In this document: positions 7,728 to 31,282 of the stretch, one piece after another
Position numbering within the stretch: position 1 is the stretch's first letter
How the letters are laid out: every line of letters begins with the position of its first letter
DNA from: Patescibacteria group bacterium
Lineage (GTDB): Bacteria; Patescibacteriota; UBA1384; XYA2-FULL-43-10; 1-14-0-10-43-13
Length of the DNA stretch: 64,000 nt
Direction of reading: 5' to 3'
NCBI GenBank assembly: GCA_041671645.1
Contig: JBAZBD010000001.1
Location: forward strand, 85,561 to 149,560
Notes under the pieces: model-generated
Told to the model about the DNA's origin: nothing
Seen by the model: the letters and a program-made list of their open reading frames with translations, nothing else
The model's database searches: none
Made by a program: the position numbers and the translations under genes

Positions 7728-9686
7728 TTGGCGAGAGGGTTTAAGCGAACGCTAACATATATTTTGATGATTGCCGTACTGGCAAAGGTTTTTGGTATTG
7801 ATGTTGTGGAAGTTAAGGCAGTCACACCGCCACCACCCACTGGCACCAGTTGGGCGTATGTCAATCAAACGGGGGCTTCAAGCGGTAATGAAATCGCGAA
7901 TCTTCGTCTCAATTACAGCTCTACTCACTGGGATTTCCATAATAGATATGCAGGAAAGACCCTTAATGTTTACGATAATCCTTGGGGCCCAGCTGATAGC
8001 TGGGATCTTTGGCAGGCGGATGGCATGATGAATAACCCATCTATTCCGAATATGTATATTCTTTCCAACAATTCTGTGACTCCGAATTCTCTTGAAAATG
8101 TTTGTTGGGATCAAAAGGACCCAAACCTTGGCCAAGTAGCTGGCGCTAAGGACTTCTTTACTGGCGTGTTTGGCGACTGGAATGCAATATCAATACCAAG
8201 TGTCGGAGTGAAGCTTTGGTGCTACAAGGCTTACGAAGTCGGCTCAATCAACCAAACCCCTGGTGCCCTTTTCTCCACCCGCTCTACATTTACAAACACA
8301 CAGCCAACGGTTGCAGCATGGCAGACGGCTGCTGTCGACTACAATATTGTTTTGCAGAAAGCCAGAGAAAGCATTTCCAAGCCCATAATGCCAACTATTT
8401 TACCGGTGCAAAGGATAGGGCCCATCTCGGCAAACGATCAAGCCTGCAAATCGTGGTATACAACCAGAAGGATTGCCTCGGACGCGGATGCCCAAAAGTG
8501 GATTGACGCTCAGCTCAAGGAGATTAAAACCGTTGTACCAGATGGACAAAACGACGCAGCAGCTCAATATCTCAAGGATTATCTTTCAAACTCAGCCTCA
8601 GCCTCGGCACTGAAAAGCTTCTTGATCAACACAGATGCTGCTTCCTTCCAAAGATATTATGGCACCGCGTCAAAGCAGTATCCCACCGTTGCCCTATCGA
8701 CAAGAGAAGCTAATTCTCTCGTATCCGACTGGGATAAATTAAACGCTGGCATCCCATATGTAATTAACGGTCAGAGTGGTGCAGTCACAGCTTCGAATTG
8801 GTTTCTCGGCGTCGGAGCCGTCGCTCTTATAGCTGCAGGTGTAGTAACCGCTATGGGAGTTGGCGGTACGGTATTATTTGGCTCGGCCGGCGTCACTGCT
8901 CCCGCAGTAGCTGTTACTCAAGCGGCAAGCGGAGCAGCCGTGACTGCCTCAGGCATTGAAATATCCGGAGCATATGGTACTGCCTTGCTTCATGCAGCTA
9001 CTGCCGCCGGGACTGGGACAGTCGTGGATGGCGGTATATTATTGACTACTGGAGCAGTAATACCTGCGACTGCTACTGAAATAGCGGCTGGGAGCGTAGT
9101 CGCAACAACGGCCGCGAAGATAGCCATTGGGGCTGTAGTTACCCTTACGGCTGTATGGCTCCATGAATATATACTGAGAGCTGCCGCCCTAGCAGTCGGA
9201 GTCATAATAGGTGTTTACAATACATTCAAAACTTGGATGGACGCGGCGGCGAAAGCTGGAACATGGAACCCAATAGTTGCGTGGCTCAATAATTCTGAAT
9301 ACAAGGCTGCGAGAGAGGCTTATCTTTACAATATTTCGAAATTCTCCTTGGACATGTACTACGCCAACCAGAATAACCAATACAACAACTGCTTGAAAGG
9401 CAAGGGGGATCCCGCTGCCGTCTTTAATAGCACTGTCGATTCCCAATACCAAAAACTTTTGCCCCAGGGGTATGCGCTCGCTGGAACTTTCAATAATGCT
9501 CCAGGAGCCAGTGATTCTCCTTCGCTCTGCGCCGGATTTGATATGTGGAAGGAACCAATTTCATGGGCTTTTTGTGGTATTATCAGCATTTTCTATGATT
9601 TTGCGACTTGGCTGCAAGGACTTGGGGACAAATGGATGGCAGCCACTATTGGCGTGACCTACGACTCATGCTCAGCGGGCCCATGA
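7728..9686 (+). CDS. Secreted/surface protein with signal peptide and roughly 190-aa Gly/Ala/Val/Thr-rich hydrophobic region (T4SS locus component)
   Basis: TTG start after GGAGGGG, signal-like N-terminus, a PPPPTGTS linker and a GA-rich hydrophobic block (GVGAVALIAAGVVTAMGVGG...). The C-terminal domain is Cys-containing. Confidence 0.5.
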   Translation: MARGFKRTLTYILMIAVLAKVFGIDVVEVKAVTPPPPTGTSWAYVNQTGASSGNEIANLRLNYSSTHWDFHNRYAGKTLNVYDNPWGPADSWDLWQADGMMNNPSIPNMYILSNNSVTPNSLENVCWDQKDPNLGQVAGAKDFFTGVFGDWNAISIPSVGVKLWCYKAYEVGSINQTPGALFSTRSTFTNTQPTVAAWQTAAVDYNIVLQKARESISKPIMPTILPVQRIGPISANDQACKSWYTTRRIASDADAQKWIDAQLKEIKTVVPDGQNDAAAQYLKDYLSNSASASALKSFLINTDAASFQRYYGTASKQYPTVALSTREANSLVSDWDKLNAGIPYVINGQSGAVTASNWFLGVGAVALIAAGVVTAMGVGGTVLFGSAGVTAPAVAVTQAASGAAVTASGIEISGAYGTALLHAATAAGTGTVVDGGILLTTGAVIPATATEIAAGSVVATTAAKIAIGAVVTLTAVWLHEYILRAAALAVGVIIGVYNTFKTWMDAAAKAGTWNPIVAWLNNSEYKAAREAYLYNISKFSLDMYYANQNNQYNNCLKGKGDPAAVFNSTVDSQYQKLLPQGYALAGTFNNAPGASDSPSLCAGFDMWKEPISWAFCGIISIFYDFATWLQGLGDKWMAATIGVTYDSCSAGP

Positions 9687-9690: not shown

Positions 9691-12501
9691 ATGATGAATA
9701 TTCTCGAAAAATTGAACTTATCAAAACAGAGCAGAATAATAGCCTTCTGCATTTTTGGATTTTTCCTTGTCGTTCTAGCTTTCTTGGTCCACCCTACCTT
9801 AACACTGGCCGGTACTGGGACTACCAGTAATCCAGCCACTTCATTTAATCCTCCGACAAGTTTAGCCAAAATCTATGAAGTTCTGGGCACCAACAACGGC
9901 GGTGTAGGTCACGAGATCCGATCTCTTTGGATCACCATGATGGGTATCGTGAATTCGCTGATAGTCTTAGTTCTCCTTTTTGTCGCTTTTGCGGAAATAC
10001 TACGCTTGAATGTCAGTACTTACGGAATCAAGAAGATATTGCCTACCCTAGTCCTGGCCGTACTAGCCGCCAACTTTAGCTACATTCTCTGTCGTTTCAT
10101 AGTCGATGTTGCCAACGTAATGCTGACTCTCTTTTTGAGTGATACCAATACCAAATGTATTACAGAAGGCATCAAAGTCTCAAAGTTCTTTCATGCCGAC
10201 ATCGAATCAATCATCAAAGATTTGAATGCGAACAAGGCAGGAGGTACTTCCGGTGGCCTTTTGACGGCATTGGCCTTGGTAATTTTTTCGATTGTCGCGG
10301 CGGTAATCACCTTAGTCCTGGCTTTTCTCTTTACTATCAGGAATTACATTATATATCTACTTGTGATTGTAGCTCCGATTGGCTTCATGGCCATGGCTCT
10401 GCCCCAAACCAAAACTTACTTCGGCCAATGGTGGAGCATGATGGTGAAATGGACTTTCATGCCTACTGTATCGATTGCCATCATCTGGATGGGTGGGCAA
10501 TTGCTCAAACTATCAGGCATAGGAGACTCCCCGCTCATGGGTATGGTTCTCTCTGTTGCCTTCTTGGTCCTTGCGATCCAGGTCCCCTTCAAGCTCGGCG
10601 GCCCAATCATGCAAAAATGGGGTGACATGGGCAAGAAAGCCTGGGGATCAACAGGTGGAGCTGCCGCCAATAAATGGGGTAGCGGCATCAAGGACTACTG
10701 GACTAATCAGGGGAAAAGCGTGGCCATGCGCGGCTGGAACAACTGGCGCATGACTGGATTAAATATGGTCCGCAAAGGCAACGGTTTCCAACGTGCCTTG
10801 GGAAACAGCTTCCTCTTCGGCTCGGGCGGAGACAAGGCTAAAGCCAATGTCAAATTTGAAGAAGATTTTGCAAAGGGTCTGACTGAGGGTATCCAGGCTC
10901 GTCACTACTACAAAGAAGACAGCACAGGCAAAGCAAGCAAAGCAGGCAAAAACCTCCAAATGCGCCGAGAATATCGGGCGAACCGTGCAGGCGAGGAGAA
11001 AGAGTATGAGGCCTATGCCAAAGAAGATATTATGAAGGTAGGGGCGACCGATCCAGAAGACGAGATGTACACCACCCTCAAGGCATGGCGCGCTTCTTCT
11101 GGACATGCCAGACAGAGAATGGCTATAGCCGAACAGCATATGAACGATTTAGTTGGGCAAGGTACCTTCGCCTCGATCCAGGGATATTTGATGAAAAAAG
11201 AAGACCAGAGTGAGGAAGAGATCAGAGTAGACGCGATTAAGAACAATCCCACTATTACAGACGCTGAGCTTAACAAGATTGTTGAGGAGACCGTAAAGGC
11301 AAGAAAAGAAAGAGACCAGGCAGAATACAAGAAGGTACTGGGAATGAACCAAGATCAATTCAAGGAATGGAGCGAATTCCAGATATTTGTAAATACCGAG
11401 AAAGAAAGTACTAATCGATTGAAAGAAAAAGCCGAGAAAGACCAGCTCGTCAAGCCGACAATGGATCAGCTTGCTATCCATGAACAAGCCGAGCTTTCTC
11501 AAGAAACCAAGCTTACAACACAGAAATTCAAAGAACTCTCTGACGAATTGAAAAAATTCGCCAACGGTATACAGACGAGTGGCAGAAAATTAAGTGAAAT
11601 GACCCAAGAGGAAAGAAACCACTTGCAGTCCAGCGCTTTCAGCGATGACGAAAGAAAGAAGTTTTCTGCCTATCTTAACAACCAGGGTCGCGCCACCGTC
11701 CGCCTTCGAGAGATGGGCGTATTGAATGAGAACGAGGAGTTCCGAGGCAGCGGTGACGCTCACGACTCCGCAATTGCTAAGGCCGTTGAGACGAGAGAAG
11801 CAGAGTTTATCGAGAAATTTATCAAGGGCGAGATGAAAAACGGTAAGAGAGCCGGAAAGGTAAGAATCGACGAGACTACGGGCAGGATTTCTCATATTCC
11901 AGCTCACTTGAGAAACCTGGTCGAACAAGATGCAGACGGGAACATCAAGCTAAGGCGTATGGATAGGACCACCTATACCAGAGGATTGGCTGTTGCTAAC
12001 GATAAAACCAAGGGAAGAGTTGCGGACTATTCCGCTATGACTGTCGACACCCTAATAAATCTGCTTACTGCAGGGGACAAAAAAGACAGCATCACCGCCG
12101 AAGACATCCAGGCCTTTAGAGCTGGACATGCCACCTCAGATACCAATAAGCGTAGCCGTATGATGGCCATGATAGCTTCACTTGCCGCAAAACTCGACAA
12201 GGCAAACGAAGCCAATCCAGCCGCTGAATTCATTATCAGTGGGCTTAGCCGTGATGAGACTACTGGGACCGACGAGACTCAGGAATTATTATCGGAACTT
12301 GAAAAATCTGCGGCGACTGGAGCCGCTTGGTCGACAGGCAAAGGTATGGAGGAGGCGTTAAAAGCAGCGCGGGATGCGTCTGCCGGTGACATAACGGAGT
12401 TTCGTAGAACTTTGACTACTGTTTACGCGACAATCCCCCAAAATCAAAGAGGTACCGTCAACTCTATTATTAGAAAATTTGTCAGAACTGGATCGTATTA
12501 A
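9691..12501 (+). CDS. VirB6/TrbL-like polytopic membrane protein with roughly 600-aa charged coiled-coil C-terminal extension
   Basis: Five to six TM segments across the N-terminal 330 aa with VirB6-like architecture. It is followed by a K/E-rich helical tail and sits in an operon with VirB3/VirB4 homologues. Confidence 0.55.
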   Translation: MMNILEKLNLSKQSRIIAFCIFGFFLVVLAFLVHPTLTLAGTGTTSNPATSFNPPTSLAKIYEVLGTNNGGVGHEIRSLWITMMGIVNSLIVLVLLFVAFAEILRLNVSTYGIKKILPTLVLAVLAANFSYILCRFIVDVANVMLTLFLSDTNTKCITEGIKVSKFFHADIESIIKDLNANKAGGTSGGLLTALALVIFSIVAAVITLVLAFLFTIRNYIIYLLVIVAPIGFMAMALPQTKTYFGQWWSMMVKWTFMPTVSIAIIWMGGQLLKLSGIGDSPLMGMVLSVAFLVLAIQVPFKLGGPIMQKWGDMGKKAWGSTGGAAANKWGSGIKDYWTNQGKSVAMRGWNNWRMTGLNMVRKGNGFQRALGNSFLFGSGGDKAKANVKFEEDFAKGLTEGIQARHYYKEDSTGKASKAGKNLQMRREYRANRAGEEKEYEAYAKEDIMKVGATDPEDEMYTTLKAWRASSGHARQRMAIAEQHMNDLVGQGTFASIQGYLMKKEDQSEEEIRVDAIKNNPTITDAELNKIVEETVKARKERDQAEYKKVLGMNQDQFKEWSEFQIFVNTEKESTNRLKEKAEKDQLVKPTMDQLAIHEQAELSQETKLTTQKFKELSDELKKFANGIQTSGRKLSEMTQEERNHLQSSAFSDDERKKFSAYLNNQGRATVRLREMGVLNENEEFRGSGDAHDSAIAKAVETREAEFIEKFIKGEMKNGKRAGKVRIDETTGRISHIPAHLRNLVEQDADGNIKLRRMDRTTYTRGLAVANDKTKGRVADYSAMTVDTLINLLTAGDKKDSITAEDIQAFRAGHATSDTNKRSRMMAMIASLAAKLDKANEANPAAEFIISGLSRDETTGTDETQELLSELEKSAATGAAWSTGKGMEEALKAARDASAGDITEFRRTLTTVYATIPQNQRGTVNSIIRKFVRTGSY

Positions 12502-12509: not shown

Positions 12510-13298
12510 ATGGACAAAGATTACACTAATTTGATTAGGCTACTAATTCAGGCAGATGACAGATCACTTGGTGACGAGTCAGTCACTTCTATTTTGTCGC
12601 GAGCTCAATCCGTCGACGCTTCTGTCAAGAGGACAGTGGCTGAAAATTATGATGATATCAAAATATTTGTCGCTTCAAGGAAAGCCGACATTTATCCTCG
12701 TCATCTCCTGTTGGAAAGGCTTCAGCTGAAATTACTCGACGCCGTGCTTCTCGATGTCAATGCGTCTCAAGTTTCATCCTGGAAACCCGAACAGATTATC
12801 GAAAAGATAAATCATGACATTGTTGAGGGCAAGGGAGACTTTAAGTTAAATAAAATAGACAATATCCTGGACATTATTCACAAGATCCAGACCGTGGAGA
12901 AAGTAAACCGCTCCATCGACCTGATCTATTATTATGATCTTGCCCAGAAGGCATATTTTCACATGCCATATTTTCGGAACCTAGAACAAAATGTTATTGA
13001 GAATATAATTCGCGATTTGGAAAACAATTTCCCTAGAGTTAGATACACCTTGTCCGATGAGACAGCCTCCAAGAAAATAGCCACTGCCTGCTTGCTGTCC
13101 AAGGGATTCACTCAAAGCCAGCTATCTCCGCTGACTGCACCATCACTTTTCGAGATCATGAAGGACATTTTCTTTTGCTGTGTGGCGACCCTAATATTGA
13201 GAAGCACAAACAAAAGTAATTCATATACCTCCGCTGAGGCAGTCGACACCCTCGACCTTCTCATGGTTGATGATCAAATCATGAGCAATTGGGATTAG
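12510..13298 (+). CDS. Hypothetical cytoplasmic protein of T4SS locus
   Basis: ORF in the operon with no recognised motifs. Confidence 0.4.
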   Translation: MDKDYTNLIRLLIQADDRSLGDESVTSILSRAQSVDASVKRTVAENYDDIKIFVASRKADIYPRHLLLERLQLKLLDAVLLDVNASQVSSWKPEQIIEKINHDIVEGKGDFKLNKIDNILDIIHKIQTVEKVNRSIDLIYYYDLAQKAYFHMPYFRNLEQNVIENIIRDLENNFPRVRYTLSDETASKKIATACLLSKGFTQSQLSPLTAPSLFEIMKDIFFCCVATLILRSTNKSNSYTSAEAVDTLDLLMVDDQIMSNWD

Positions 13299-13399
13299 TA
13301 CTTCGCCGAGCTGACCTTATAAATTTTGGCACGGCTGATCTGTTGCTGTACTTTGGTATCAATGTTATAATTTCCCTAGAGATTAATTTGGAGGGGATA

Positions 13400-13819
13400 T
13401 TGAGATTTAAGGTTCCGCAAAATATCGACATGCAGGATCGCATTTTGGGGCCACTGACCATGGTTCAATTTATCTATGCCGTGGTCGGATTTGGCATTTG
13501 CTACGCTATATTCTCGGCCATACCTGCGCCGCTCTCCTATCTGCTGGTCATACCAATCGGCCTTTTTGTCGTATGTCTCGATTTCGTCAAGGTCAACGAG
13601 AGGCCTTTCCTAAACTTTTTCATGTCAGCGATCCAATTCGCCGGTTCGCCCAAACAAAGGTTTTGGAGCCAGGGCAGCGATTCAGATATGGAAGTGGAGA
13701 TTTATCAAGCCCAAGTCCAACAAACAACCCATCCACACAAAGATATTAGCCACGCCGAGATCGAAGCCCTGGCTGGGAAAATAGACACTATTTCAGGCAA
13801 ACAGATGATTGAAAGATAG
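13400..13819 (+). CDS. VirB3/PrgI-like small two-TM membrane protein
   Basis: Two hydrophobic helices (FIYAVVGFGICYAIF and LLVIPIGLFVVCL), size, and position immediately upstream of VirB4. The likely start is TTG 13400 after GGAGGGG (or ATG 13430). Confidence 0.5.
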   Translation: MRFKVPQNIDMQDRILGPLTMVQFIYAVVGFGICYAIFSAIPAPLSYLLVIPIGLFVVCLDFVKVNERPFLNFFMSAIQFAGSPKQRFWSQGSDSDMEVEIYQAQVQQTTHPHKDISHAEIEALAGKIDTISGKQMIER

Positions 13820-16715: not shown

Positions 16716-18161
16716 ATGCCTGACCTCGATGTCTCAAAAGTTGCAGGCGGGTTCAAGATCCAAAAATATCTGATTCCGATCGGCGGATTTTTTGTCGTCA
16801 TGCTTTTCTCTGTGATCGGTTTTTCTTTTTTTGGGATAATGAGGGACAATCGAATTCCCGAAGTGACACCCATGACCTCAATTTCTGGCGCATCTGTCAC
16901 CTGTCAGGACTGGGGCGCAGGCACAAAGGGTGCCGTCAATTTCCAGGAAGATATTACATATGCTGCCAACAATTCCAAGATCCAGCCAGCTCTGCTAGGC
17001 GCGATTTTTTCGGCTGAGCATGGAGGCTGGCCAGTTTCAAATTGGGCTACTGACGACTATACGACACCAAACCAAACAAGCGGTGCGATGGGCCCGTTTC
17101 AATTCATGCCTGGTACATGGGCTGAACAGTGCAAAAAATACAATAACGATCAGGTTAAAAAATTAGGCTTAGCCCCAATCGCAGATTGCGGTCCGGATAC
17201 CGCCAAGGATTTCAAATCTGCGTCCAAAGTCTCAGCCTATTATCTGAAATATCTGGCCGGCCGGATTACGAAGAATAGTAAAACTGCTGAAAAAGCTGAT
17301 ATTCAAGGTATAGCCGTTTCTTATAACGGTGGCCCAGGAACTTACGATGATTGGAAAGACTCTGGATTTGCGACCCTAAATAGCGAATCCAGCGGATACA
17401 AAACGAAGGTTTGGGATCGCTTTCAGGTTCTATACAAAGGGTGCTCCTCCAATGACGCTACCAATCTACCGACAACTATCTCCTCCTTTGACACTTCATT
17501 TATGAACGCAGAGCCGCTGAAGAGTTGGCTGAAGAATCGACCCAAGATTAACACACAGAGTCAGACCGCCACAGGCATTACTCTCCACTGGACGGGAAGC
17601 TGGGACAAGAATGTGACAGCAGAGCAGGCAGTCAGTAAGTTGATAACCGGTTGGTACAATCGTGATACGGAGACAGACGGCACGAAGTCTTCGGTATTTA
17701 ACCATCTGGTGATTGATCCGGCTGGCAAGGTTTGGCAGCTTATCCCGCTAGATGTAAGACAAGCTGGTTCGGGCAAGGGAACAGTAAATAATATTAGCGC
17801 CAATGACTTCACTATCGGCATTGAGATAGCAGGCACGGGGCCGGCAGATGTGGGGCCCGACACTGCCGCCTACAACGCAGCCCTTACTACTGTCGAAAAA
17901 CTGTTATCCGAGATTCCAACCATCAAGAACGACAGAGGCAATGACCTTAATTTCAAGGCTAAGTCTGGAATATTCGGTCACTTCCAAACCGCAACTGCGA
18001 CAAGCACGAGCACAGTTGGCTGTTCAAGCGCCAAGGATGACCCTGGGCTGGCCTTCATGAAGGAACTTTGGGATGACCTCAAGATTTGGCAGGGGCTCCG
18101 GACAAATGGCAACGGTTGTTATTTCGAAAATGGAAAAAAGAAATATTACCCACCAAGATAA
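16716..18161 (+). CDS. Bifunctional peptidoglycan hydrolase: SLT lytic transglycosylase plus N-acetylmuramoyl-L-alanine amidase (amidase_2/PGRP) domains; VirB1 functional analogue
   Basis: SLT motif AIFSAEHGGW...GAMGPFQFMPGTW. The C-terminal amidase_2-like region is NHLVIDPAGKVWQLIP...FTIGIEIAG. An N-terminal TM anchor is present. Confidence 0.7.
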   Translation: MPDLDVSKVAGGFKIQKYLIPIGGFFVVMLFSVIGFSFFGIMRDNRIPEVTPMTSISGASVTCQDWGAGTKGAVNFQEDITYAANNSKIQPALLGAIFSAEHGGWPVSNWATDDYTTPNQTSGAMGPFQFMPGTWAEQCKKYNNDQVKKLGLAPIADCGPDTAKDFKSASKVSAYYLKYLAGRITKNSKTAEKADIQGIAVSYNGGPGTYDDWKDSGFATLNSESSGYKTKVWDRFQVLYKGCSSNDATNLPTTISSFDTSFMNAEPLKSWLKNRPKINTQSQTATGITLHWTGSWDKNVTAEQAVSKLITGWYNRDTETDGTKSSVFNHLVIDPAGKVWQLIPLDVRQAGSGKGTVNNISANDFTIGIEIAGTGPADVGPDTAAYNAALTTVEKLLSEIPTIKNDRGNDLNFKAKSGIFGHFQTATATSTSTVGCSSAKDDPGLAFMKELWDDLKIWQGLRTNGNGCYFENGKKKYYPPR

Positions 18162-18248: not shown

Positions 18249-18611
18249 ATGTCAAACCCCGACATCTTAAATCTGGAAGAAAGAACCGCAAAATTTGGTG
18301 AGGCGATAATACATTTATGCCAAGAATCAAAGGTAACAATTATTACCGAGCCAATTATACGACAGATAATACGTTCAGCCACGAGTATCGGTGCAAATTA
18401 CATGGAGGCGAATGGGGCCTGCTCAAAGAGTGATTTTAGAAATAAAATCTTTATCTGCAAGAAAGAGACAATGGAGACAAAACACTGGCTGAGAATGCTA
18501 TCGTCAGCTTTACCAGACAAATCCGATGAATTGCGAGAGTTATGGAAAGAAGCGCAGGAGTTAACTTTGATATTTTCTAAAATTGCCGGGTCCTTAAAAT
18601 CTAAAAATTAA
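18249..18611 (+). CDS. Four-helix-bundle protein (23S rRNA intervening-sequence protein family, TIGR02436-like)
   Basis: QIIRSATSIGANYMEANGACSKSDFRNKIFICKKETMETKHWLRML matches the family core (SIGANxAEG...SKxDF...KE..ET..WL). Confidence 0.7.
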   Translation: MSNPDILNLEERTAKFGEAIIHLCQESKVTIITEPIIRQIIRSATSIGANYMEANGACSKSDFRNKIFICKKETMETKHWLRMLSSALPDKSDELRELWKEAQELTLIFSKIAGSLKSKN

Positions 18612-19923: not shown

Positions 19924-19933
19924 CGGAGGGGTA

Positions 19934-21790: not shown

Positions 21791-24700
21791 TTGAGGGATG
21801 TGAAGAAATTTTTGCAAAAATTTGTGTTCACGCTGGTTGCGCTGATTTTGGTGTTGAACCCATATATCGAGCTCATCCCGACAGATTACTTCTCCAGCAA
21901 GGCCAAAGCGGCGATCAACGATATCCCTGATCCAGAGATCGCGTCAACCGATGAGAGCGATCATGATTATGAGGAGGAAGTAGATAGCGATTACACCCCA
22001 GAATACTCTCCGAATTTCATCCCCGACCCAGTCAAAGATGCCTTCTCCCTCGTGGTGACTGATACCACTGAGACCTTTACTGATCTTACCAGCACGAGCA
22101 GTCTGCTTGAAGATATTGGTGATGCCAAAATCATCCTGACCCAGAGTGATTTTGACGCGATCAAGGCCCTTCGTTGCATGAAGAATCTACTCCCGCCATT
22201 CGCCGAGAACATGTCAAAACTCTATGAGTTTACGATTCCCGAGGGTATCATTAATTCTAACGAACAATACAAAAACTTCCCAGCCAAAGAGGAAATTGAC
22301 GATGCAGTCTCTAGTGAGGGATCTCAAGCGACGCCAAGATTCGGCACACCCGAAGAATACCTCTCCTATCTCAAATACGGAGACTCTGGCGACCCGCTCC
22401 TCACCACAAACCAGAACAAGGAAAAATTTGTTAACTATGTTGATTCAGCCAAAGCATATTACGGCGACGATCGCTTAAGGGCAGACTGGCTTGCGCAAAT
22501 CGACAACCTTGCAGAGAACAAAACTCTCGATACCGATATAAATACTCTAGCTTGCGTCACTCGGATTACTGACGCAGAACAGCTGATGGCTCTGATTCGA
22601 GAAAGCAAAACTGATGAGACCAAGCGACAGTACTTGCTCGACAGAATCAATGAGAGTCTAGACGGACTCAAGATTGACATCCGCGCAGTCAAGGCCCTGA
22701 TTTATTTGGTTACGCCTAAGAACAAGGGAGGCGCTGGACACTGGAGAATCCGCGTCAAGAAATTCCTCCAAACTGGCCGCAAATCAGGTGAGTCTGATGC
22801 GTTGCTGACTGGAGCCGCCAAAACAGTGAACTGTGATCCGGCCAAATCCGCCGCTGAATGCGGCATGGCTCAGTACCAACCGGGCGAGGCGACGATAGAA
22901 GAGAAAGATGGTAGCGCCTACACTGCCTATCTAGAGTCTATGAACGACGGTGAGCAAAATGATTCAATGCACCAGCAGGGTCAGGCTATTGATATTTCTG
23001 AGATTGACGACATAAGATGCACGATACGGAAAGAGGTTAAGCAGTGGGGAAATGTTAAGGGCCAGAACACTCCTCAACCAACAAGACCAATTAAGTTGGC
23101 CTGGCAGACTACAGAAGGGTTCAACAAATCAGAGGGTGCCAATGACTTTGATATGATGTCTCTTATCAAATCGATGGCGACCTCCGAGGTGGTCGACTTC
23201 CTGGGCTCGATCAACGAGACTGATATGTCTGACTATGAGGGCGACCTGACCAGAGCCAGTTTTGGAGATCTAGTCAACGTAGTGGGCAAGTCCCTAATGA
23301 CTGAAATTCTCGCTTCGCCTGATCATAATTTGAAGGGCTATAGCACCGACAGCACTCTTAGAAACCTGGGTGGTATCTATATCGCTGACTATCTCGGGAT
23401 TAATCGAAAATTATTTACAGACAAACATATCAACACTCCGGGAGATCTCTTCTATGAAATCGGCCGCGGCGCGATCGAGACTCGGATGAAATTGCCTCTC
23501 AACTCACTCGACACGACCAATCCTGCCGTGCCCCTCTTCTCGACCTTGGCCCAGACAGGAACTAGGAAATTGGAGTATGAATTGGGGCTAGCCAACGGAG
23601 ATCTGGCGCGCCTAGACCCAAACTCGGTTGCCAGCATCTATATTGGCGCCCGTGTGATCGAAGGAACGCTTAATTTCAAGAAATTCGTTTGGCCAAGCCA
23701 GGACAAGCCATTTGCTGAGTTTGCCAGCACAGCAGAGGGTCTGAATTGGTTTGATCTGCTTCGGCTCAGCCCAGACACAATCGACATGATGCTTCACCTG
23801 AAGTCTGGTGTGACTGAAGCCTTGGTCAAGGGCAAGACCTTGACTCCGGCTCAGTATGACAAAATGATGAAGTTGCCCGAGGGCACGACGACAGAGTCAG
23901 TCAAGATGAACTCGGACCGATACGCTAGTATCGTTGGGCAAGTTAGATTGGATGAGACAACTTTTGGCTTTCAATACTTCGCCGCCAACGATGCCGCCTT
24001 CTCCTTGCCAACTGGGCTCTGGGCTGAGGTAATCAAATTTAGCCCAGATACTTTGCAACAGAGCCTCGCTGAAGTCGGAATTTATACGCTCTCTCGACTA
24101 TTCGGCGAAGATGATGCTTCTCCTTTGCCAAAGCTAGAAGTGGGAGAGCAGGTTGTCAGTATCCAGACCCATGAGTACGGCAAGGATGTAACTTTCCAGG
24201 CAAATGATGGTAACTTTGGTCGCTGGGTATTCCGAAGTTGGCTTCGAGACAACCTAACCAAATCAACCGAAGAGGCTTGTCAGGCGCCGGCCCGTCCGAT
24301 TGAGGTTGATGTTTCCTTTGATCAAGCTGGCGCTCAGCAGCCAAATCCAAACAGTCTGCTAGATGTTCAAGCAACTTTTGGAACCAATGTATTCAAACCG
24401 GTCAGTCTAGCTCTAGACTACCAAGTCACCTATAATCCAGCCGCCAATGGCATACCACAGCCTTCGAAAACGCTGACCAAAGACGTCTCTGAGATTAGAC
24501 CAATTTCCGAAGAAAAGGCAACGAAATATGGCTTTGTAAATCGAGACTTACAAAGAATCTTTGGCTGTGCATCAGCCAATGGGCGTGATGTCTACCAGCG
24601 GATAGGCTCTGAGCTCCTCTACACCGCCCTGATCAACCAGGCGCTGAGCGAGACTGACCGCGCCAAGATTGACATTATGGACACCGATCCTACAATTCAT

Positions 24701-27700
24701 GTTGCCAACGAAGAGATCAACTTCTACATCCAACGCATCTTCTATATTAAGAAATTGCTTGGACAGATCGACACCCAATACGGCTCAATCGTATCTGAGG
24801 GCAAAGACGACATTAAATCTTTTGTAGATCTTTCGAAACTATCTTATGACCAGCTCAAACAGGTATATGGAGACCTGACCAATCTCCAACTGTTCTCCAT
24901 CAGCAAAATAGCCGCTACCGCCTCACAGACTATGACCGATATCGACACGCTAAAACAGGTGGCCTCCGATTGGAAAGAGTACATGCGGACACGAAGGGCA
25001 GACTTGGTCGGAGATATAGCTGCCGTCAATCAGATTGTTTATCTCGTCAACGAGCTTTGGACCACTATTGCCGAGCTCGATCGTGGCAAGGCTATTAATG
25101 GTGTTGATCGTATTAAATTTCAGCAGATTGATTCTACTCCGCTACAGGAAGTCGTAAACCAGGACAGAAGACAGCAAGCACAAGAGAGATCAGACTCGGC
25201 CAAGAAAAAGGGCCTCTCTGCTTGGCAGGTTGCACAGATGATGTTCGACTGGATTGCCGGTACGATCACTTCCTCCGAGCTCTTTTATCGCCTGGGCGCC
25301 AACTCGATCGAAGCTAACATCGGCCTTCCGCCCAATAGCCTAGTCTACCTAGTCCGCAATTATGACCAAAATGGCATATCTGGCCTCGACGCCTTTTATC
25401 AATCGGTTGGCCAGGCCAGGATTGAGGAAAATTTTGGCATGCCCGCCTTCTATTTCCAGGGCAACTTTGATGCCCAGGCCAAGCCCAACTTCCAATCTGA
25501 CCTGAAGGCAGTCTACAACATGATTACGACGGATTCTGTGCTTAAGCACGATTATCCCGATCTGGCCGCACTATCCGAAGCAGACTTCCTGAAGTATATG
25601 GATAGCCTGCTCACGGCGCCGATGCTCGATTATGCCGCCGATCCCTGGATACAGCTTATCAGGACCCCCGGTAGTCCATATTCGATCAGTAGTGAGCCCA
25701 AGACCCCAGGTGATGATCTCAATGCCTACAAGGCCTTCTACAAGAAAATCGCCGATAGTCAAAAAGCTTATACCAAGAGCACGGCTCATTGGCAGGCAAT
25801 TGTTGACAATGTCGACAAACGTTGGAAAGCCAAGCGCGCCAGTGATGTCAAGGGATTGGGCAGTAGCAAGTACAGCGAATCAACAGTCCAAGACATCGTA
25901 GCAAATATCAAACAGCGCTGCTTCACTGGTGTAAACAAAGCTCAAGCGGATGGTACAGTGAAATGTCTCAATATGACTCGGTCCCCCGAGGATGATCTCC
26001 TTTTCCGTATGGGTCTCCCGCGTGGAAACTTTAACGCTATGACCGCAGAGAATTCAGTCAACAACACGTCCCTCTGGACTCGACTAGCAGGCACTACTCA
26101 GTCAATCGAGCAGGGATTCACAATCGATCAAAACGCGATCAAAGCCCTCTTTACCGGAGAAGATACTCGCTATATTAATCTTTCCCGAAAAGAGAAGCAG
26201 GTGGTCGAGGGTTCTGCTCTCAAAATCAATACCAACGTACTAAGTTTCTACGCTCAGATGCTTAATGGTGAGGTTCTGCCCAACGACACAGATCAGTATA
26301 ATTTGGACACTTGGACTCAGTACTACGTCAGCAACCCGTATGCACCGAAACAGCAAGCCAGTGAGACTTGCCCAGTTCTTTATTTGCCAAAAGGTGACGC
26401 AAGCGGCACCTTTATGGTCAATGAGACTACCCTTGAAAACAATTCATACTGCTATTATGACGCCAAGGGAAGACACTGCTTCAAGAGTTGGGATGAAGCC
26501 CAGCGCTATGCCATTGCCCACGAAGCCGACTCGATAAGACATCTGAAAGTCGTGATAGACGGCAAAGAGCAGGAAATTAGCAACAATATTCTGGGATATC
26601 TTGCCAATCAACTTGTTCTGGCCAACAATGCCGCTTTACCTGACCAAGCGACCACAGATGCCGCCGCAAATGCAAATGTCACCATCCATGGAACTATCGA
26701 ATTAAATCTGAGTGATGTCTACGCAGGACTGGTCAGATTTGTGAATGACAACTCGATGGTCGATATCTTTGGGGATAAGAACAAGAGTATAGCCATGATT
26801 TCGGCCATCGCTGGCTCGACGACTGTGCCGGCTAGTATACTAGAAAAGCTTTTTACTCGTGAACCGAGCGTAAATTCCGTCGCCACTTTCAAGAAGAAGG
26901 TTGGTGTCAAGGAAGCACAAAAAGTTGTCACTTACCAAATTTTTGGAGCTTTGCAACTTGGCCTCGCCGTTGGGCCGGACTACTTCGACGCAGGCGACCT
27001 CTATGATGTCTTGAACGGCGACTACACTGCGCTGACCAACATCGCGACCAATTATATTGATCTGAAGGCTGAGCTGAAGCCTGGCACAACACGTCTTCTC
27101 TACGAAGCTCGCAATCCAGAATCAATTACTTGCGCCCTCGCCCAAGCTGGTGGCTCAATGCTCGGTCGGATCTTTGGCCTCAACAATATTCCGCTCAATG
27201 GGATCCAAAACGTCTCATCATTTAAAGAAGCGGTCGGTCAAGCCAAGGTCGAGGAGACCCTCTCCCTGCCTCGAGGTACCTTCAGGGGCAACAATCTGTA
27301 TGAACTGCTCGACAATGTCGGACCGATCAACTTCATGATCGCCTTTAAGATACCGGTTGACCCATCAGTTGCGAATGGGATTTCTGACGATATCGACAAG
27401 ATACTCAACTCCAACACTAGCTACTCTCAGGGAGCCAATTTGGCCTATCGCTTGACTCGGGTAAGAGATGTTCTCTCGACTCGCAATATTCTTCAAAGTG
27501 ATATTGGCACAGCCATCGCCAATATCAACAGCGCTCTCAAAAATTATTTCATCAATGATCTGCTCAAACAATTTGAAAATGATCCGACCAAGATCCAAGT
27601 TGCCCTGTCGGCCCGTAATCAAAACAATAGAGATTGGTATTATGCGGTCCAGGATTTCTATCAGCAGACCAGTTCACTGGACAAAACTTTTGCGGTCAGC

Positions 27701-30700
27701 AACGGTAGCACTTATCAGCTTCTAACCAACTCGATCAAGCCAAAAACCTATATCAATCGAATTGGCGAGAATCTCATGGTCACTGCCGCCATTTCCAACG
27801 CCGCCACTCTGCTTGGGATTTCCGACGCGAAAGTTCAGGCAGCAGCCGGCGTCCTGGGTGCAATCAAGAACAATTTTGTCTGCGAGAAAAGCAAGATCAT
27901 CACCAGAGATAATTATCCATCAAACGGCGTTTCTGACGGACATTTTCTCTACGATGTGCAAGTAAACAATATCAAAAATGACTACTGGGAACAGTATCTC
28001 AGAACCGGCAAACATACTTATGACGATGTTGGCTTTCCCGTCTTGGTTTATGATGAGGTTGGCGCTGCAATCGGCTACTGTAGCGATGACACTTATGGCC
28101 AATTCGGCGAACTGTATACCAATCTTAATACCCTCTTCGGCTTCAATCTTGATGACAGGATGAATTTGCCGGAAGGCACGATCAGCAAAGTTCTATCTGA
28201 CCCCGACCACATCGTCGATAATATATTGAATATCGGACTCAGCAAACTTGACCAACAACTTGGACTTGACTATACCGTGGACGGTTCTTTCTCATTCAAT
28301 GGCTTCTGGAAAGCGACCTTTTACAAGGACGGCCAGAAGAAGGACGCAGAGAGAGAAAAAATCGACAGAAAGTGCTACAGCCAAAGTTATCCAGGGGGGA
28401 CAGACGTCGCCATCAAAACTCAGTATGACGCTGCCAACAACGATATTAAGCGATTGCTCGGAGAGTGGCCGGCCCGAGGAGCTTCACGGATCGAGGGCGA
28501 AAATTACCAGCAGTACTCGCAGAGAGTAACTTCTCAAGCCACTTTGGACGCCACTCACACTACTGAGATGCGGGACGCTTGGGTTAGCGATTGGGAAAAA
28601 TACAATCAGCAGGCTAACACTGCTAGCGGCAATATTACTATCCAAAACAATGCCTTTAATCAATGTAAGCTCGACAACAGGAAGCCAGTAAGTAACGCGG
28701 CGTTACGAGCAGATATTCTTGACTACGCCACCGGCCAACTTGTCACTTTGACTGGCAAACTACTGCGAGACGTTGTCGTTACGATTCCTGATTGCCAAAA
28801 CAATCGCGCCGCTTATCTTGACGGGGCAGGCAGCTATGACCCCGTTCTCTCCAACCAGCTTGATTATTTCGGCCAGCCTATTGGCTATGAAGAGTGCAAA
28901 GCCAAGGTCGGTGTTGTTGTTCCGAGAGAAGATTTGAAAGCACTTATCCAGGGCGACCTTCGCTATCTTTCCCCGATTGCCATGACAATCGCTTCAAACA
29001 TCGCCATGATACCGGTAGACATGTGGGGCACGGATAACTGCAATCCAGACGCCGATGGCCGATGTGAGAGTGCCGTTCCACCTCAATTCAAGCTCAGTTA
29101 CAACGACTACAAATATGCCATTTTTGGCAACGCTCAGTCCGACCAAGCGGCTCGGGACGTCGCCGCTTATAGTCACTTCAACTTAATTGAAAAAAACCCT
29201 GACGGCGTACGCATCAACTCAGGGCCGGAGTATCCTGTCTCTACTGATCCCTTCGACACGGGTCTTGGCATACTTTCAGATACCAGGGTGGCAAAAGTAG
29301 CGAATCAACCTGGCAGAGAGATTATCAACAACAAGACTGATATCTACACACAATACGGCTATACCCCAAGTAGTGCCGAGGCTGTCGATGCAATCAGCCA
29401 ACGAGCCGATTTGCAAAACAGCGTGGCCGACTTTGAAAACGCTTGCGGCATCAAGTATGGGCTTATCAGCAACAGCGCGGCGACTTGCCACAATGGGTCA
29501 CCAGAGTTTGCGGCCTATATTTCAGATAGAACTCAATTAACCGCACTAAGAGATAGGGAGACTGCGATTCTAGGCGAATCAAAGAACCTCTACCGAAACA
29601 ACTTGATGTACAAGGCGATAGACATAGCCGCCTGGAAACTTGATGGCAACGCCTATCCTGGATTTGCTCGCGCAATCGCAATCGGCACTCCCAAAATGAA
29701 GGCAGAGGCCCTTGTCACTTATCTCAAGATTGGTGCTCAGAGAGGCCATCTCTTCGGCATGGATTTCAGAGCAGTCAAAGATATCGAGCAGTGGGCCGGG
29801 GCCGCTCAATTTCTCTACGAGGCTGGGCAAAATATTCTTCGCGATACGGATACGTTTGACCCCCTAAGCACTCTTGCCAAGAATCCTAGCGCTCGATATT
29901 TCATCCAAGATTTTATCGTCTCTCGCTCAAAGGCCTGGTTTGGCTTCGAGATCCAACCAGACATGGCTGAGGGTATTATAGTCGGCATTGGTACTATGGG
30001 CTCAGCCGACCATCCTTGGGGCAATTGGGGGATCAAGGATGTCGGCATCGACAAAGTTTTTGAGGACCCGAACAACACGGGCGTCACTATTAATGTTGGA
30101 GGAGACAAGACAGTCCAGATGAAGACTCTGGGCGGAGCAACACAAGAGTATCTGGTCGACCGTCTTTTCTCCTGGGCCGACACCAAACTTGGTCTCGAGG
30201 CAGGCACTTCCTTCAAGCTCGCCAAGGGCATATATGACGCTTTCACTGCTTACGGCAAAGTATCTGCCGCCATCAAGGCCGCCAAGCTGGCTGGTTGGGT
30301 TGTGCCAAACTTGCCTCATACTGCCGCTGGCCTGGAAGCGATAGCCGACACTCTTTTCGATAAAGCAGACGCGTTAGCTTTGGATATAACAGACGCAGAA
30401 CTTTCGGCAAGCCTAACAGGGGCTGACGCTAACCAAATCGTTTATGAGAATACCGGATTTGATGGCGTAGACGCAGGAGAAAAAGCTGCCGAGGATGCCA
30501 AAGCTGCCTCTAAGACTATAAATACCGAGGGAACCAAATTCCAAGCTGCCAAAGACCTTGTTGCGGCCATAATCATTGAAATCTTAATTGGTAAAGCGCT
30601 TGGCAAAATCGTGGCCGGTTGGGAACAGGATCTTGGTATGATCCCTGGCACTCTGATGCCACTGGTTTCTGGTATTGTCACTTTCGTGTTTATCTTCGTC

Positions 30701-31282
30701 TGGAATACGGTGATGGCCACGATTGGAGCGGAGGTATTAATGCTATCCCAGGTGCCAGGACTTCAGTGGCTTGCTATAGCAATAGCCGTCATCGGTTTCA
30801 TTGGTGGGATGCTCTTTAGCACTAAATATTTCTACTGGTGTACTGCCGATGGATACTACCCAAGAGTTGGGTCTTTTGATTACAACAAGGACGTGGGTGG
30901 ATTTGGAGAAATAGGCGGACGAATCGATCGCGGCGCAGCCTTCTTGGGACCGCTCATGGCAACTTATGGCGTGAAAGTGGCACAATACAAAGCTCGCCAA
31001 TTGGTTGGCGACATGCTGGCTCTGCAAAACTCTCCTCGATTCAAAGATTCATATGGCGACGATATCGTACCAATCCAAATCATGACTGGTCGCAAAGTTG
31101 ATGTTGATTTCTGGAAAGAGAGCATTGATACCAATATGTGCAAGAAGATGCTTGATGAAGATTACATCGCCTGTGACGGCATGTGCGGCAAAGCGACTAG
31201 CGATGGCGGCTGTGTCAGTACTTCCCGTATGGGCGTCTGGGCCAATCCACAAACGATAGGCTGGACGCATATTGGATTTTAG
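21791..31282 (+). CDS. Giant (3163 aa) membrane-anchored surface protein
   Basis: Single uninterrupted ORF with an N-terminal hydrophobic signal/anchor and a C-terminal cluster of TM helices (GIVTFVFIFVWNTVMATIG, LQWLAIAIAVIGFIGGMLF). No recognisable catalytic motif; it is in an operon after the T4SS genes. Confidence 0.7.
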   Translation: MRDVKKFLQKFVFTLVALILVLNPYIELIPTDYFSSKAKAAINDIPDPEIASTDESDHDYEEEVDSDYTPEYSPNFIPDPVKDAFSLVVTDTTETFTDLTSTSSLLEDIGDAKIILTQSDFDAIKALRCMKNLLPPFAENMSKLYEFTIPEGIINSNEQYKNFPAKEEIDDAVSSEGSQATPRFGTPEEYLSYLKYGDSGDPLLTTNQNKEKFVNYVDSAKAYYGDDRLRADWLAQIDNLAENKTLDTDINTLACVTRITDAEQLMALIRESKTDETKRQYLLDRINESLDGLKIDIRAVKALIYLVTPKNKGGAGHWRIRVKKFLQTGRKSGESDALLTGAAKTVNCDPAKSAAECGMAQYQPGEATIEEKDGSAYTAYLESMNDGEQNDSMHQQGQAIDISEIDDIRCTIRKEVKQWGNVKGQNTPQPTRPIKLAWQTTEGFNKSEGANDFDMMSLIKSMATSEVVDFLGSINETDMSDYEGDLTRASFGDLVNVVGKSLMTEILASPDHNLKGYSTDSTLRNLGGIYIADYLGINRKLFTDKHINTPGDLFYEIGRGAIETRMKLPLNSLDTTNPAVPLFSTLAQTGTRKLEYELGLANGDLARLDPNSVASIYIGARVIEGTLNFKKFVWPSQDKPFAEFASTAEGLNWFDLLRLSPDTIDMMLHLKSGVTEALVKGKTLTPAQYDKMMKLPEGTTTESVKMNSDRYASIVGQVRLDETTFGFQYFAANDAAFSLPTGLWAEVIKFSPDTLQQSLAEVGIYTLSRLFGEDDASPLPKLEVGEQVVSIQTHEYGKDVTFQANDGNFGRWVFRSWLRDNLTKSTEEACQAPARPIEVDVSFDQAGAQQPNPNSLLDVQATFGTNVFKPVSLALDYQVTYNPAANGIPQPSKTLTKDVSEIRPISEEKATKYGFVNRDLQRIFGCASANGRDVYQRIGSELLYTALINQALSETDRAKIDIMDTDPTIHVANEEINFYIQRIFYIKKLLGQIDTQYGSIVSEGKDDIKSFVDLSKLSYDQLKQVYGDLTNLQLFSISKIAATASQTMTDIDTLKQVASDWKEYMRTRRADLVGDIAAVNQIVYLVNELWTTIAELDRGKAINGVDRIKFQQIDSTPLQEVVNQDRRQQAQERSDSAKKKGLSAWQVAQMMFDWIAGTITSSELFYRLGANSIEANIGLPPNSLVYLVRNYDQNGISGLDAFYQSVGQARIEENFGMPAFYFQGNFDAQAKPNFQSDLKAVYNMITTDSVLKHDYPDLAALSEADFLKYMDSLLTAPMLDYAADPWIQLIRTPGSPYSISSEPKTPGDDLNAYKAFYKKIADSQKAYTKSTAHWQAIVDNVDKRWKAKRASDVKGLGSSKYSESTVQDIVANIKQRCFTGVNKAQADGTVKCLNMTRSPEDDLLFRMGLPRGNFNAMTAENSVNNTSLWTRLAGTTQSIEQGFTIDQNAIKALFTGEDTRYINLSRKEKQVVEGSALKINTNVLSFYAQMLNGEVLPNDTDQYNLDTWTQYYVSNPYAPKQQASETCPVLYLPKGDASGTFMVNETTLENNSYCYYDAKGRHCFKSWDEAQRYAIAHEADSIRHLKVVIDGKEQEISNNILGYLANQLVLANNAALPDQATTDAAANANVTIHGTIELNLSDVYAGLVRFVNDNSMVDIFGDKNKSIAMISAIAGSTTVPASILEKLFTREPSVNSVATFKKKVGVKEAQKVVTYQIFGALQLGLAVGPDYFDAGDLYDVLNGDYTALTNIATNYIDLKAELKPGTTRLLYEARNPESITCALAQAGGSMLGRIFGLNNIPLNGIQNVSSFKEAVGQAKVEETLSLPRGTFRGNNLYELLDNVGPINFMIAFKIPVDPSVANGISDDIDKILNSNTSYSQGANLAYRLTRVRDVLSTRNILQSDIGTAIANINSALKNYFINDLLKQFENDPTKIQVALSARNQNNRDWYYAVQDFYQQTSSLDKTFAVSNGSTYQLLTNSIKPKTYINRIGENLMVTAAISNAATLLGISDAKVQAAAGVLGAIKNNFVCEKSKIITRDNYPSNGVSDGHFLYDVQVNNIKNDYWEQYLRTGKHTYDDVGFPVLVYDEVGAAIGYCSDDTYGQFGELYTNLNTLFGFNLDDRMNLPEGTISKVLSDPDHIVDNILNIGLSKLDQQLGLDYTVDGSFSFNGFWKATFYKDGQKKDAEREKIDRKCYSQSYPGGTDVAIKTQYDAANNDIKRLLGEWPARGASRIEGENYQQYSQRVTSQATLDATHTTEMRDAWVSDWEKYNQQANTASGNITIQNNAFNQCKLDNRKPVSNAALRADILDYATGQLVTLTGKLLRDVVVTIPDCQNNRAAYLDGAGSYDPVLSNQLDYFGQPIGYEECKAKVGVVVPREDLKALIQGDLRYLSPIAMTIASNIAMIPVDMWGTDNCNPDADGRCESAVPPQFKLSYNDYKYAIFGNAQSDQAARDVAAYSHFNLIEKNPDGVRINSGPEYPVSTDPFDTGLGILSDTRVAKVANQPGREIINNKTDIYTQYGYTPSSAEAVDAISQRADLQNSVADFENACGIKYGLISNSAATCHNGSPEFAAYISDRTQLTALRDRETAILGESKNLYRNNLMYKAIDIAAWKLDGNAYPGFARAIAIGTPKMKAEALVTYLKIGAQRGHLFGMDFRAVKDIEQWAGAAQFLYEAGQNILRDTDTFDPLSTLAKNPSARYFIQDFIVSRSKAWFGFEIQPDMAEGIIVGIGTMGSADHPWGNWGIKDVGIDKVFEDPNNTGVTINVGGDKTVQMKTLGGATQEYLVDRLFSWADTKLGLEAGTSFKLAKGIYDAFTAYGKVSAAIKAAKLAGWVVPNLPHTAAGLEAIADTLFDKADALALDITDAELSASLTGADANQIVYENTGFDGVDAGEKAAEDAKAASKTINTEGTKFQAAKDLVAAIIIEILIGKALGKIVAGWEQDLGMIPGTLMPLVSGIVTFVFIFVWNTVMATIGAEVLMLSQVPGLQWLAIAIAVIGFIGGMLFSTKYFYWCTADGYYPRVGSFDYNKDVGGFGEIGGRIDRGAAFLGPLMATYGVKVAQYKARQLVGDMLALQNSPRFKDSYGDDIVPIQIMTGRKVDVDFWKESIDTNMCKKMLDEDYIACDGMCGKATSDGGCVSTSRMGVWANPQTIGWTHIGF

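Follow-up and report, generated by a model that had tools for sequence, protein, structure and literature searches.

The 64,000-nucleotide stretch analyzed here (the window) belongs to a contig of about 868 kb, JBAZBD010000001.1, in the assembly of a Patescibacteria group bacterium (GCA_041671645.1), and at positions 7728 to 31282 it carries a chromosomal type IV secretion system (T4SS) locus beside the genes of the replication origin. This locus is very probably a vertically inherited derivative of a monoderm (MPF_FATA) conjugation machine from which the DNA-processing module has been lost. The original prediction for this DNA had described a Gram-positive-style chromosomal T4SS that is probably not conjugative, and both parts of that description are borne out: VirB4 clears the cut-off of CD1110, an MPF_FATA-type family, the match to PrgI is significant, and VirB6 is recognizable at the family level; relaxase, VirD4, and att-like repeats were not found in the window, the GC content is like that of the flanks, and the flanking housekeeping genes are conserved. 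The locus is ordinary for its lineage, and the prediction, although right, re-derives a published result. A system of this type, without relaxase or type IV coupling protein (T4CP), of Gram-positive ancestry, and beside dnaA, was already published between 2023 and 2025 (PMC10633639 and PMC12102498).

Eleven plus-strand open reading frames (ORFs) run in series through the locus with intergenic gaps of -32 to +87 nucleotides (nt) (Table 1). All ORFs of the original gene list are present where it placed them, tightly packed and co-directional, but the list omitted two, encoding a 262-amino-acid (aa) protein and a 120-aa PF05635 protein. The translocon is represented by an extended VirB6/TrbL protein, a PrgI/VirB3 protein, a TrsD-like protein, and a VirB4 ATPase with intact Walker motifs (Walker A, AKSGSGKS; Walker B, IMIVDE). 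The 644-aa VirB4 matches the NCBIfam family conju_CD1110 at 5.6e-110 (368.8 bits versus a curated cut-off of 325) and the Pfam families P-loop_TraG (1e-27) and AAA_10 (2.6e-11); we assign its family from this cut-off and the labels of its relatives. An exact-sequence look-up with the ORF gave no match, probably owing to a differing start-codon call.

Although the ATPase was identified correctly in the original prediction, it is not encoded by a single gene. The 328-aa ORF before it matches conju_CD1110 over positions 2 to 126 (1.8e-07) and TrsD/TraD (7.2e-06), both far below the curated cut-offs; its last 32 nt are shared with the ATPase ORF, which is read in a different frame. The TrsD-like and ATPase parts are separate ORFs in 62 of 65 related loci, with gaps and frames that vary from locus to locus, and are fused in three (L036, L037, and L039). 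The split is therefore a real and conserved one; a frameshift, pseudogene, or sequencing error was considered as its origin and rejected on the same grounds, the differing frames and spacers of the 62 loci. A PrgI gene lies directly upstream of the VirB4 genes in 66 of the 80 loci compared, and the earlier VirB3/PrgI call is confirmed by its own Pfam match. The 936-aa polytopic protein has homologues at the same position in 31 related loci, and because 13 of the 32 members of its family match TrbL (PF04610; best, 8.6e-08), its assignment to VirB6/TrbL, also made earlier, is supported at the family level; the family profile had no meaningful match in the PDB.

At least 588 VirB4 relatives are present in genome contigs, and all counts of loci and synteny given here refer to the best 80 of these (L001 to L080). 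All but three of the 80 are labelled candidate phyla radiation (CPR)/Patescibacteria or are unclassified, and the nearest are metagenome-assembled genomes labelled Berkelbacteria, Patescibacteria, or "uncultured Saccharibacteria." Most of the 80 share a core gene order, consisting of a ~600-aa protein, VirB6, a variable gene, PrgI, TrsD, VirB4, a hydrolase, a propeller, an M15-like gene, and a giant gene. A synteny comparison, proposed with the original prediction, finds this order and housekeeping flanks recurring across many CPR lineages. In the window, the housekeeping content comprises TsaD, FemAB, Mur ligase, Xer, PAP2, recF-dnaN-dnaA, rpmH-rnpA-yidC, PilB, EF-P, S6, TruD, YchF, and four tRNAs. 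Since several differently labelled CPR lineages have this locus in a similar setting of housekeeping genes, we favor vertical inheritance, in agreement with the published VirB4 tree (PMC12102498). The GC content of the T4SS row is homogeneous and matches that of its flanks.

Searches for relaxase and coupling protein domains cover the ORFs of the window, and there neither a relaxase nor a VirD4/TcpA domain occurs in any ORF of at least 400 aa or in the smaller ORFs scanned, which extends the earlier remark that none sits adjacent to the locus to the full 64 kb; no oriT or T4CP is in view in the window. No direct repeats pair the two flanks, so that the check for attachment sites came back empty, and no tRNA abuts the locus. 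The original prediction saw no obvious integrase nearby. A Xer-type recombinase does lie a short distance upstream, but because it scores best to XerD/XerC and a Xer-PAP2 pair occupies the same upstream position in L005, it looks like a chromosomal Xer protein and not like the integrase of an integrative and conjugative element (ICE). Within its coding sequence, a tandem octamer, GAGTGTCG, is repeated 3.6 times at 5762 to 5801; its translation, PTLRHSDTPTL, falls in a catalytic-domain loop, and the frame would shift if a single GAGTGTCG unit were added or lost.

Table 1. Features of the window, in order of position
Feature	Position	Strand	Basis or remark
Xer-like tyrosine recombinase	5486..6499	-	Best scores to XerD/XerC; 1.2 kb upstream of the row
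188-aa protein, possible first operon gene	7099..7665	+	One N-terminal transmembrane (TM) helix, residues 24-42; homologues directly before the row in 6 related loci
652-aa protein, N-terminal signal/anchor	7728..9686	+	Gly/Ala/Thr-rich hydrophobic center, segments ~350-494
VirB6/TrbL-family polytopic membrane protein, 936 aa, extended	9691..12501	+	~6 hydrophobic segments in residues 16-300; charged tail of ~600 aa
262-aa protein, C-terminal hydrophobic segment	12510..13298	+	2 sequence homologues in 80 loci (L043, L027)
PrgI/VirB3-like small membrane protein	13289..13819	+	Pfam PrgI PF12666, E=3e-10, 40.9 bits versus cut-off 27
TrsD-like protein, stand-alone VirB4 N-terminal domain, 328 aa	13825..14811	+	Partial matches to conju_CD1110 and TrsD/TraD
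VirB4 ATPase, T4SS motor, 644 aa	14780..16714	+	conju_CD1110, P-loop_TraG, AAA_10, Walker motifs
Membrane-anchored peptidoglycan hydrolase, SLT + Amidase_2	16716..18161	+	Amidase_2 4.2e-13, SLT 5e-06; TM segment 24-42
Cassette with 120-aa PF05635 "23S rRNA-intervening sequence protein"	18249..18611 (cassette 18162-18651)	+	PF05635, E=7.9e-13
Membrane-anchored TolB/PD40-like beta-propeller, PEGA-like N-terminal region	18652..19923	+	TIGR02800, Pfam; TM segment 8-26
617-aa bitopic protein	19934..21787	+	Acidic low-complexity N-terminal half, TM 252-270, M15/LAS-like C-terminal domain
3163-aa protein, last gene of the row (locus tag WC227_00520)	21791..31282	+	N-terminal hydrophobic segment; candidate LAS/M15-type metallopeptidase by motifs
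recF, dnaN, dnaA	31704..35662	-	Pfam RecF, DnaN, DnaA matches
Origin region with dnaN-dnaA and dnaA-rpmH intergenic stretches	31704..35928		DnaA boxes and Pfam
rpmH (35929-36069), then rnpA, yidC	from 35929	+	Follow the dnaA-rpmH spacer
Five VirB2/TrbC-like pilin genes (106, 109, 112, 613, 109 aa)	41333..44570	-	Pfam T4SS_pilin PF18895

The placement next to dnaA and oriC that was noted originally is correct. Perfect DnaA boxes (TTATCCACA) occur at 35355, 35368, and 35707, three boxes with one mismatch lie at 33759 to 33985, and the dnaA-rpmH spacer contains an AT-rich stretch at 35800 to 35899 with a GC content of 0.23. As the DnaA-box clusters flank dnaA (33759 to 35715), the end of the locus is 2.6 to 4.6 kb from the likely oriC. 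The neighborhood recurs among the relatives: recF, dnaN, or dnaA lies downstream of the row in L017, L024, L029, L034, L036, L039, and L044, a DciA gene does so in L020, and dnaA adjoins virB4 in the Gracilibacteria/Altimarinota-type loci L069 to L071. Transcription of the 23.5-kb operon proceeds toward recF-dnaN-dnaA in the window and likewise in L024, L029, L034, L036, L039, and L044, so that, if oriC is at dnaA, it would run head-on to the replication fork. The proximity of Patescibacteria T4SSs to dnaA, dnaN, rnpA, and rpmH has been discussed as a possible gene dosage effect (PMC12102498), an argument that leaves the head-on orientation unaddressed. This conserved and unreported orientation could matter for expression of the operon. 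A gene for the helicase loader DciA (31313 to 31690, plus strand; PF05258, 2.3e-07) begins 30 nt after the giant gene and faces recF 13 nt away; because its homologues in L017 and L020 are ~90 aa long, its true start is probably an internal Met at ~31409.

Five pilins encoded beyond the origin block, at a distance of 10 kb from the core genes, belong to the T4SS and fall outside what was originally predicted. Their matches to PF18895 have E-values of 1.7e-10, 5.7e-10, 3.8e-08, 2.5e-06, and 3.4e-06. The 613-aa member (42388 to 44229, minus strand) begins with a signal peptide and joins ~530 aa of Cys-rich extracellular sequence to a PF18895 domain at the C terminus; it may be a pilin of the pilus-tip or adhesin type. 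Beyond the array lie a gene resembling those for solute-binding proteins (SBP), an NTP-transferase gene, Hsp20 (47081 to 47464), a ComF-type gene with DZR_2 and Pribosyltran domains (47541 to 48284, ~3 kb past the pilins), and a tRNA-Ser (48356 to 48443). The first of these, encoding a lipobox-bearing SBP_bac_1 protein (44564 to 45973), shares an overlap with the first pilin gene, and the two are probably cotranscribed.

Downstream of VirB4, the row continues with genes for proteins that appear to act on the cell wall. The SLT plus amidase hydrolase of the original prediction holds up, both Pfam domains being significant, and we predict a VirB1-like role for it. The propeller protein was described as PEGA/PD40: the propeller is supported by TIGR02800 TolB (2.5e-11, far below the curated cut-off), PD40 (0.0037), and several WD40/propeller Pfam matches, whereas PEGA has no Pfam match, even though the N terminus is PEGA-like. 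Homologues of the propeller lie downstream of VirB4 in 41 related loci. The next product, of 617 aa, had been called an acidic M15-like protein. The acidic half is there, and so are zinc-type motifs (SQHATGHGVD...HTNHTHIGF), which align with the positional homologues in L004, L005, and L044, proteins that themselves match Peptidase_M15_4 at ~1e-16. The 617-aa protein itself matches VanY at only E=0.14, below threshold, and an AlphaFold model of its ectodomain built from just two sequences (pLDDT 38.8) is too poor to show a fold, so that its M15-like nature, suggested by motifs and position, is plausible but not proven. It has no meaningful match in the PDB, and homologue searches returned two matches with the full-length protein and none with the ectodomain, too few for a deep alignment.

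The last gene of the row encodes a product of 3,163 aa, a real ORF with an N-terminal hydrophobic segment; it had been called a surface protein in the original prediction. Searches of the protein against Pfam, NCBIfam, and the PDB gave no match, and five slices of it searched against Pfam at E<=5 were likewise empty. Its first motif, SMHQQGQAID, is at residue 392, and its C terminus, ~2750 residues farther on, reads ...WTHIGF; the pentapeptide THIGF also forms the second zinc motif of the neighboring 617-aa protein. Among 63 homologues of 1762 to 3144 aa, which lack any annotated domain, 60 have [STA]xHxxGx[AG]xD at about residues 320 to 445 together with a C-terminal H[IVL]G[FY], typically ...THIGF. 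When 1.84 billion proteins were searched with a profile of the N-terminal domain, 222 representative clusters matched, almost all with lengths of 1,400 to 3,300 aa, and under strict patterns both motifs are present in 113 of the 166 proteins of at least 1,300 aa in the combined set. In the giant family (P0001 to P0063 and P0066 to P0185), the extreme C terminus has the form (W/Y)THIGF or DxxH(I/V)G(F/Y). At least 20 related loci have a giant-type gene after the row, shorter versions (854 to 1,500 aa) take its place in the operons of other CPR lineages, and in ten close relatives an open frame with the N-terminal motif runs off the end of the locus after the M15-like gene.

Because both the SxHxxGxAxD near the N terminus and the THIGF C terminus are conserved, a split M15/LAS zinc site is the simplest reading of these motifs. 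On motif evidence, the giant family could represent a new architecture, an M15/LAS-type zinc peptidase whose catalytic motifs are parted by an insertion of 2,000 to 2,750 residues; we put this forward tentatively and consider it somewhat unlikely. Iterated profile searches from the N-terminal domain reached the 1429- to 1939-aa proteins of L012, L034, L036, L037, and L039 and no compact M15_4 protein. An alignment of that domain with compact M15 proteins by hhalign covers 18 columns, the motif only (P=5e-4), and BLASTP between the 617-aa and 3163-aa proteins gave nothing significant beyond the THIGF and SxH motifs that both contain. AlphaFold modeling of residues 230 to 660 from 18 sequences gave a mean pLDDT of 54.9 and values below 50 over the motif region, and hydropathy counts of C-terminal TM segments are inconsistent across the family. 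The split motifs go beyond the published T4SS accounts examined. Should the N- and C-terminal ends come together in one fold, the insertion might extend as a long structure on the cell surface, bearing a wall-cutting active site at the interface between epibiont and host.

Taken as a machine, the locus would work as follows. VirB4 would supply the energy for assembling a channel, together with a pilus of the VirB2 type, across the monoderm envelope, and the hydrolases would open the organism's own wall and possibly that of the host. The machine would then act at the contact site between epibiont and host by moving macromolecules, either protein effectors out or host nucleic acid in, and not by conjugation. 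We consider protein export and import of host nucleic acid about equally likely as its route.

Delivery of effectors or other proteins into or onto the host bacterium, which would keep the host permissive, is possible but, taken singly, less likely than not; the wall hydrolases and the giant protein could be among the cargo. Cotranscribed with the core are three or four wall-active proteins, secreted or anchored in the membrane, and the 3163-aa protein with its N-terminal signal, and the synteny of the giant gene is conserved. Effector delivery has been speculated on before (PMC10633639 and PMC11665869), and protein-exporting T4SSs without a T4CP exist, namely, Ptl and Brucella VirB (PMC12102498). 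However, the candidates encoded in the operon have Sec-type N termini and need not use the T4SS, and no effector has been identified in any Patescibacterium.

Equally compatible with the gene content, though a somewhat doubtful possibility when taken singly, is an uptake machine in which T4SS and pilus would draw host DNA or RNA into the epibiont as a source of nucleotides, by analogy with the ComB system of H. pylori. The absence of export-type coupling and relaxase genes from the window speaks for it, as does the ComF-type gene past the pilins, since the order of pilins, Hsp20, ComF, and tRNA-Ser is also found in Southlakia. Uptake was put forward as a hypothesis in PMC11665869, and a 2026 preprint reports that a cultivated member of the Patescibacteria acquires host RNA and that tubules at the interface may be T4SS pili (10.64898/2026.06.21.733656). 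In Southlakia, however, ComEC is dispensable and the T4SS essential (PMC12857230), so uptake would need to bypass the competence channel. We also list on the opposing side the weak, sub-threshold matches of VirB4 to archaeal Ced DNA-import ATPases (CedB, 1.4e-14).

That the locus is an ICE, or a decayed one, near oriC, with a relaxase and coupling protein too divergent to recognize or outside the 64 of ~868 kb in view, is very improbable and we reject it. In its favor, the VirB4 falls in the CD1110 family, which was defined on conjugative elements, a tyrosine recombinase gene lies upstream, and a few Patescibacteria do carry relaxases (109 in 103 genomes, PMC12102498), but the scanned ORFs contain no relaxase or T4CP domain, neither bracketing repeats nor an abutting tRNA nor a shift in GC content marks the locus, the recombinase is Xer-like and syntenic in L005, and the same housekeeping-flanked locus in several CPR lineages points to vertical inheritance.

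Several observations weigh against our preferred interpretation of a vertically inherited, non-conjugative T4SS. The 936-aa protein on its own matches TrbL PF04610 at E=0.02, below the cut-off, the VanY match of the 617-aa protein is likewise sub-threshold, and no VirB8-like component was identified in the window. A VirD4-like T4CP or a relaxase could be encoded elsewhere in the genome, beyond the 64 kb of the window; Patescibacteria commonly have T4CP homologues at a distance from virB4 (PMC12102498). The nature and direction of the substrate cannot be read from the sequence.

The closest described counterpart is the T4SS of Candidatus Southlakia epibionticum ML1, a member of the Saccharimonadia (SEML1_0006 to 0019; Wang et al., 2023), which adjoins dnaA-dnaN-recF and is essential for epibiotic growth by transposon sequencing; its pilin array is among the essential parts, and neither a relaxase nor a coupling protein is recognizable in it (PMC10633639). 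SEML1_0004 and 0005 adjoin it, and a structure-based table in the same study lists Hedgehog/DD-peptidase, multi-lysozyme, and PEGA proteins downstream of VirB4 (PMC10633639). Both loci are chromosomal, lie beside and convergent with dnaA-dnaN-recF, and lack a recognizable relaxase and coupling protein; both encode PrgI, a TrsD-like protein and VirB4, VirB6-like proteins, lysozyme or peptidase genes after VirB4 including an M15-type one (M15-like by motifs in the window), and a PEGA-domain protein (PEGA-like at the N terminus in the window). Although the lineages are distant, the order of PF18895 pilins, Hsp20, ComF, and tRNA-Ser (SEML1_0014 to 0022) is shared as well. Differences are also apparent. 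The window interposes SBP-like and NTP-transferase genes between pilins and Hsp20, and its pilin array is parted from the core by the origin block, PilB, and other genes. It has one VirB6-like gene where Southlakia has two, an NTF2/VirB8-like protein was not detected in it, its hydrolase combines SLT and Amidase_2 in place of a phage-tail lysozyme and a glucosaminidase, and it has a TolB-like propeller. The terminal gene of the window encodes 3163 aa with split M15-like motifs, in contrast to the 1113 aa and contiguous C-terminal domain of SEML1_0007.

Based on 3,035 genomes, Quinonero-Coronel (2025) placed 2,425 Patescibacteria VirB4s in one clade within MPF_FATA, and that survey describes TrsD, the most abundant T4SS protein of Patescibacteria, along with PrgI, VirB6, VirB1-like proteins, and VirB2 arrays, and relaxases as rare (PMC12102498). 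The locus of the window resembles that clade in its MPF_FATA-related VirB4 with TrsD upstream, PrgI/VirB3, VirB6, VirB1-like hydrolases, multigene VirB2 arrays, missing relaxase, and proximity to dnaA, dnaN, rnpA, and rpmH. The propeller, the M15-like protein, the giant terminal gene, the head-on orientation, and the PF05635 cassettes are not discussed in the sections of the survey consulted. A 2025 review treats these systems as a new T4SS subgroup (PMC12857230), and a 2024 perspective called the role of the T4SS in Patescibacteria "completely unknown" (PMC11665869).

With the conjugative MPF_FATA systems (CTn2 CD1110, pCF10 Prg, and pGO1/pSK41 Trs), the locus shares a CD1110-family VirB4, PrgI, a bifunctional wall hydrolase, and the lack of an outer-membrane core, and with pGO1 in particular a TrsD-like N-terminal domain encoded as a separate gene. 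Unlike them, it has no relaxase, T4CP, or oriT in view, it has VirB2-like pilins, which the Gram-positive systems lack, and it is fixed in the chromosome beside oriC and not carried on a mobile element. The likeness to M15/LAS peptidases (VanY, Peptidase_M15_4, and the Hedgehog/DD-peptidase fold) consists of SxHxxGxAxD and a C-terminal HxH/DxxH in the 617-aa protein, the compact positional homologues of which match PF13539, and of the same two motifs in the giant family. The giant protein differs in the ~2750 residues between its motifs and in having the second one as its literal C terminus.

The remaining genes of the row have fewer counterparts. The 652-aa protein has the hydrophobic N terminus of the "signal-peptide protein" in the original prediction and no Pfam or NCBIfam match; relatives have a ~600-aa gene in the same slot before the VirB6-like gene, with no detectable similarity to it. 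The slot between VirB6 and PrgI holds variable genes in relatives, and the 262-aa protein found there in the window had no family match in domain scans. A twelfth ORF, encoding a 188-aa protein without a Pfam or NCBIfam match, directly precedes the row and is conserved there in six relatives. Promoter and terminator scans at both ends of the locus found no excess over shuffled expectation, and an Rfam scan of the window found the four tRNAs and nothing else. A near-identical 18-mer, TAGCGGAGGGGT(T/A)TTGGC, occurs at 7715 to 7732 and 19921 to 19938, before two TTG-initiated genes of the operon. In it, a stop codon is combined with the ribosome-binding site GGAGG and the TTG start codon, and it probably represents a shared translation initiation context.

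The PF05635 ORF between hydrolase and propeller is an inserted cassette and not a T4SS component. The cassette has a GC content of 0.38, versus 0.46 for the window, and its AT-rich flanks pair with each other (RNAduplex, -29.2 kcal/mol), forming a terminal stem of ~40 bp in both minimum free energy and centroid folds. In relatives, no PF05635 gene occurs at this position, and the hydrolase and propeller genes are adjacent. Across the 80 loci, 37 copies were found in 23, in various intergenic slots of T4SS operons, with 29 of the 37 inside the T4SS span (binomial p=4e-4). Flank complementarity exceeds that of control genes (median z of -3.3 versus ~0; 61% versus 3 to 6% below z=-3), and the repeat sequences differ between copies. 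These units look like cassettes of the intervening-sequence type, bracketed by a stem and inserted in an mRNA operon; they may serve as sites of processing by RNase III or represent a mobile cassette. Like the orientation of the operon, such stem-bracketed cassettes are unreported and could matter for its expression.

Before the T4SS of Patescibacteria, no T4SS had been reported as essential to the organism carrying it, and the present locus extends the set of examples to a lineage with Berkelbacteria-labelled nearest relatives. The locus illustrates that accessory genes, those for the propeller, the M15-like protein, and the giant protein with split motifs, travel with the core outside the Saccharimonadia. 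The remaining value of the locus lies in this accessory module, which supplies concrete candidates for a function in host contact. If the split-site architecture is true, the giant protein would be a candidate for the host-penetrating or adhesin part of an essential T4SS.

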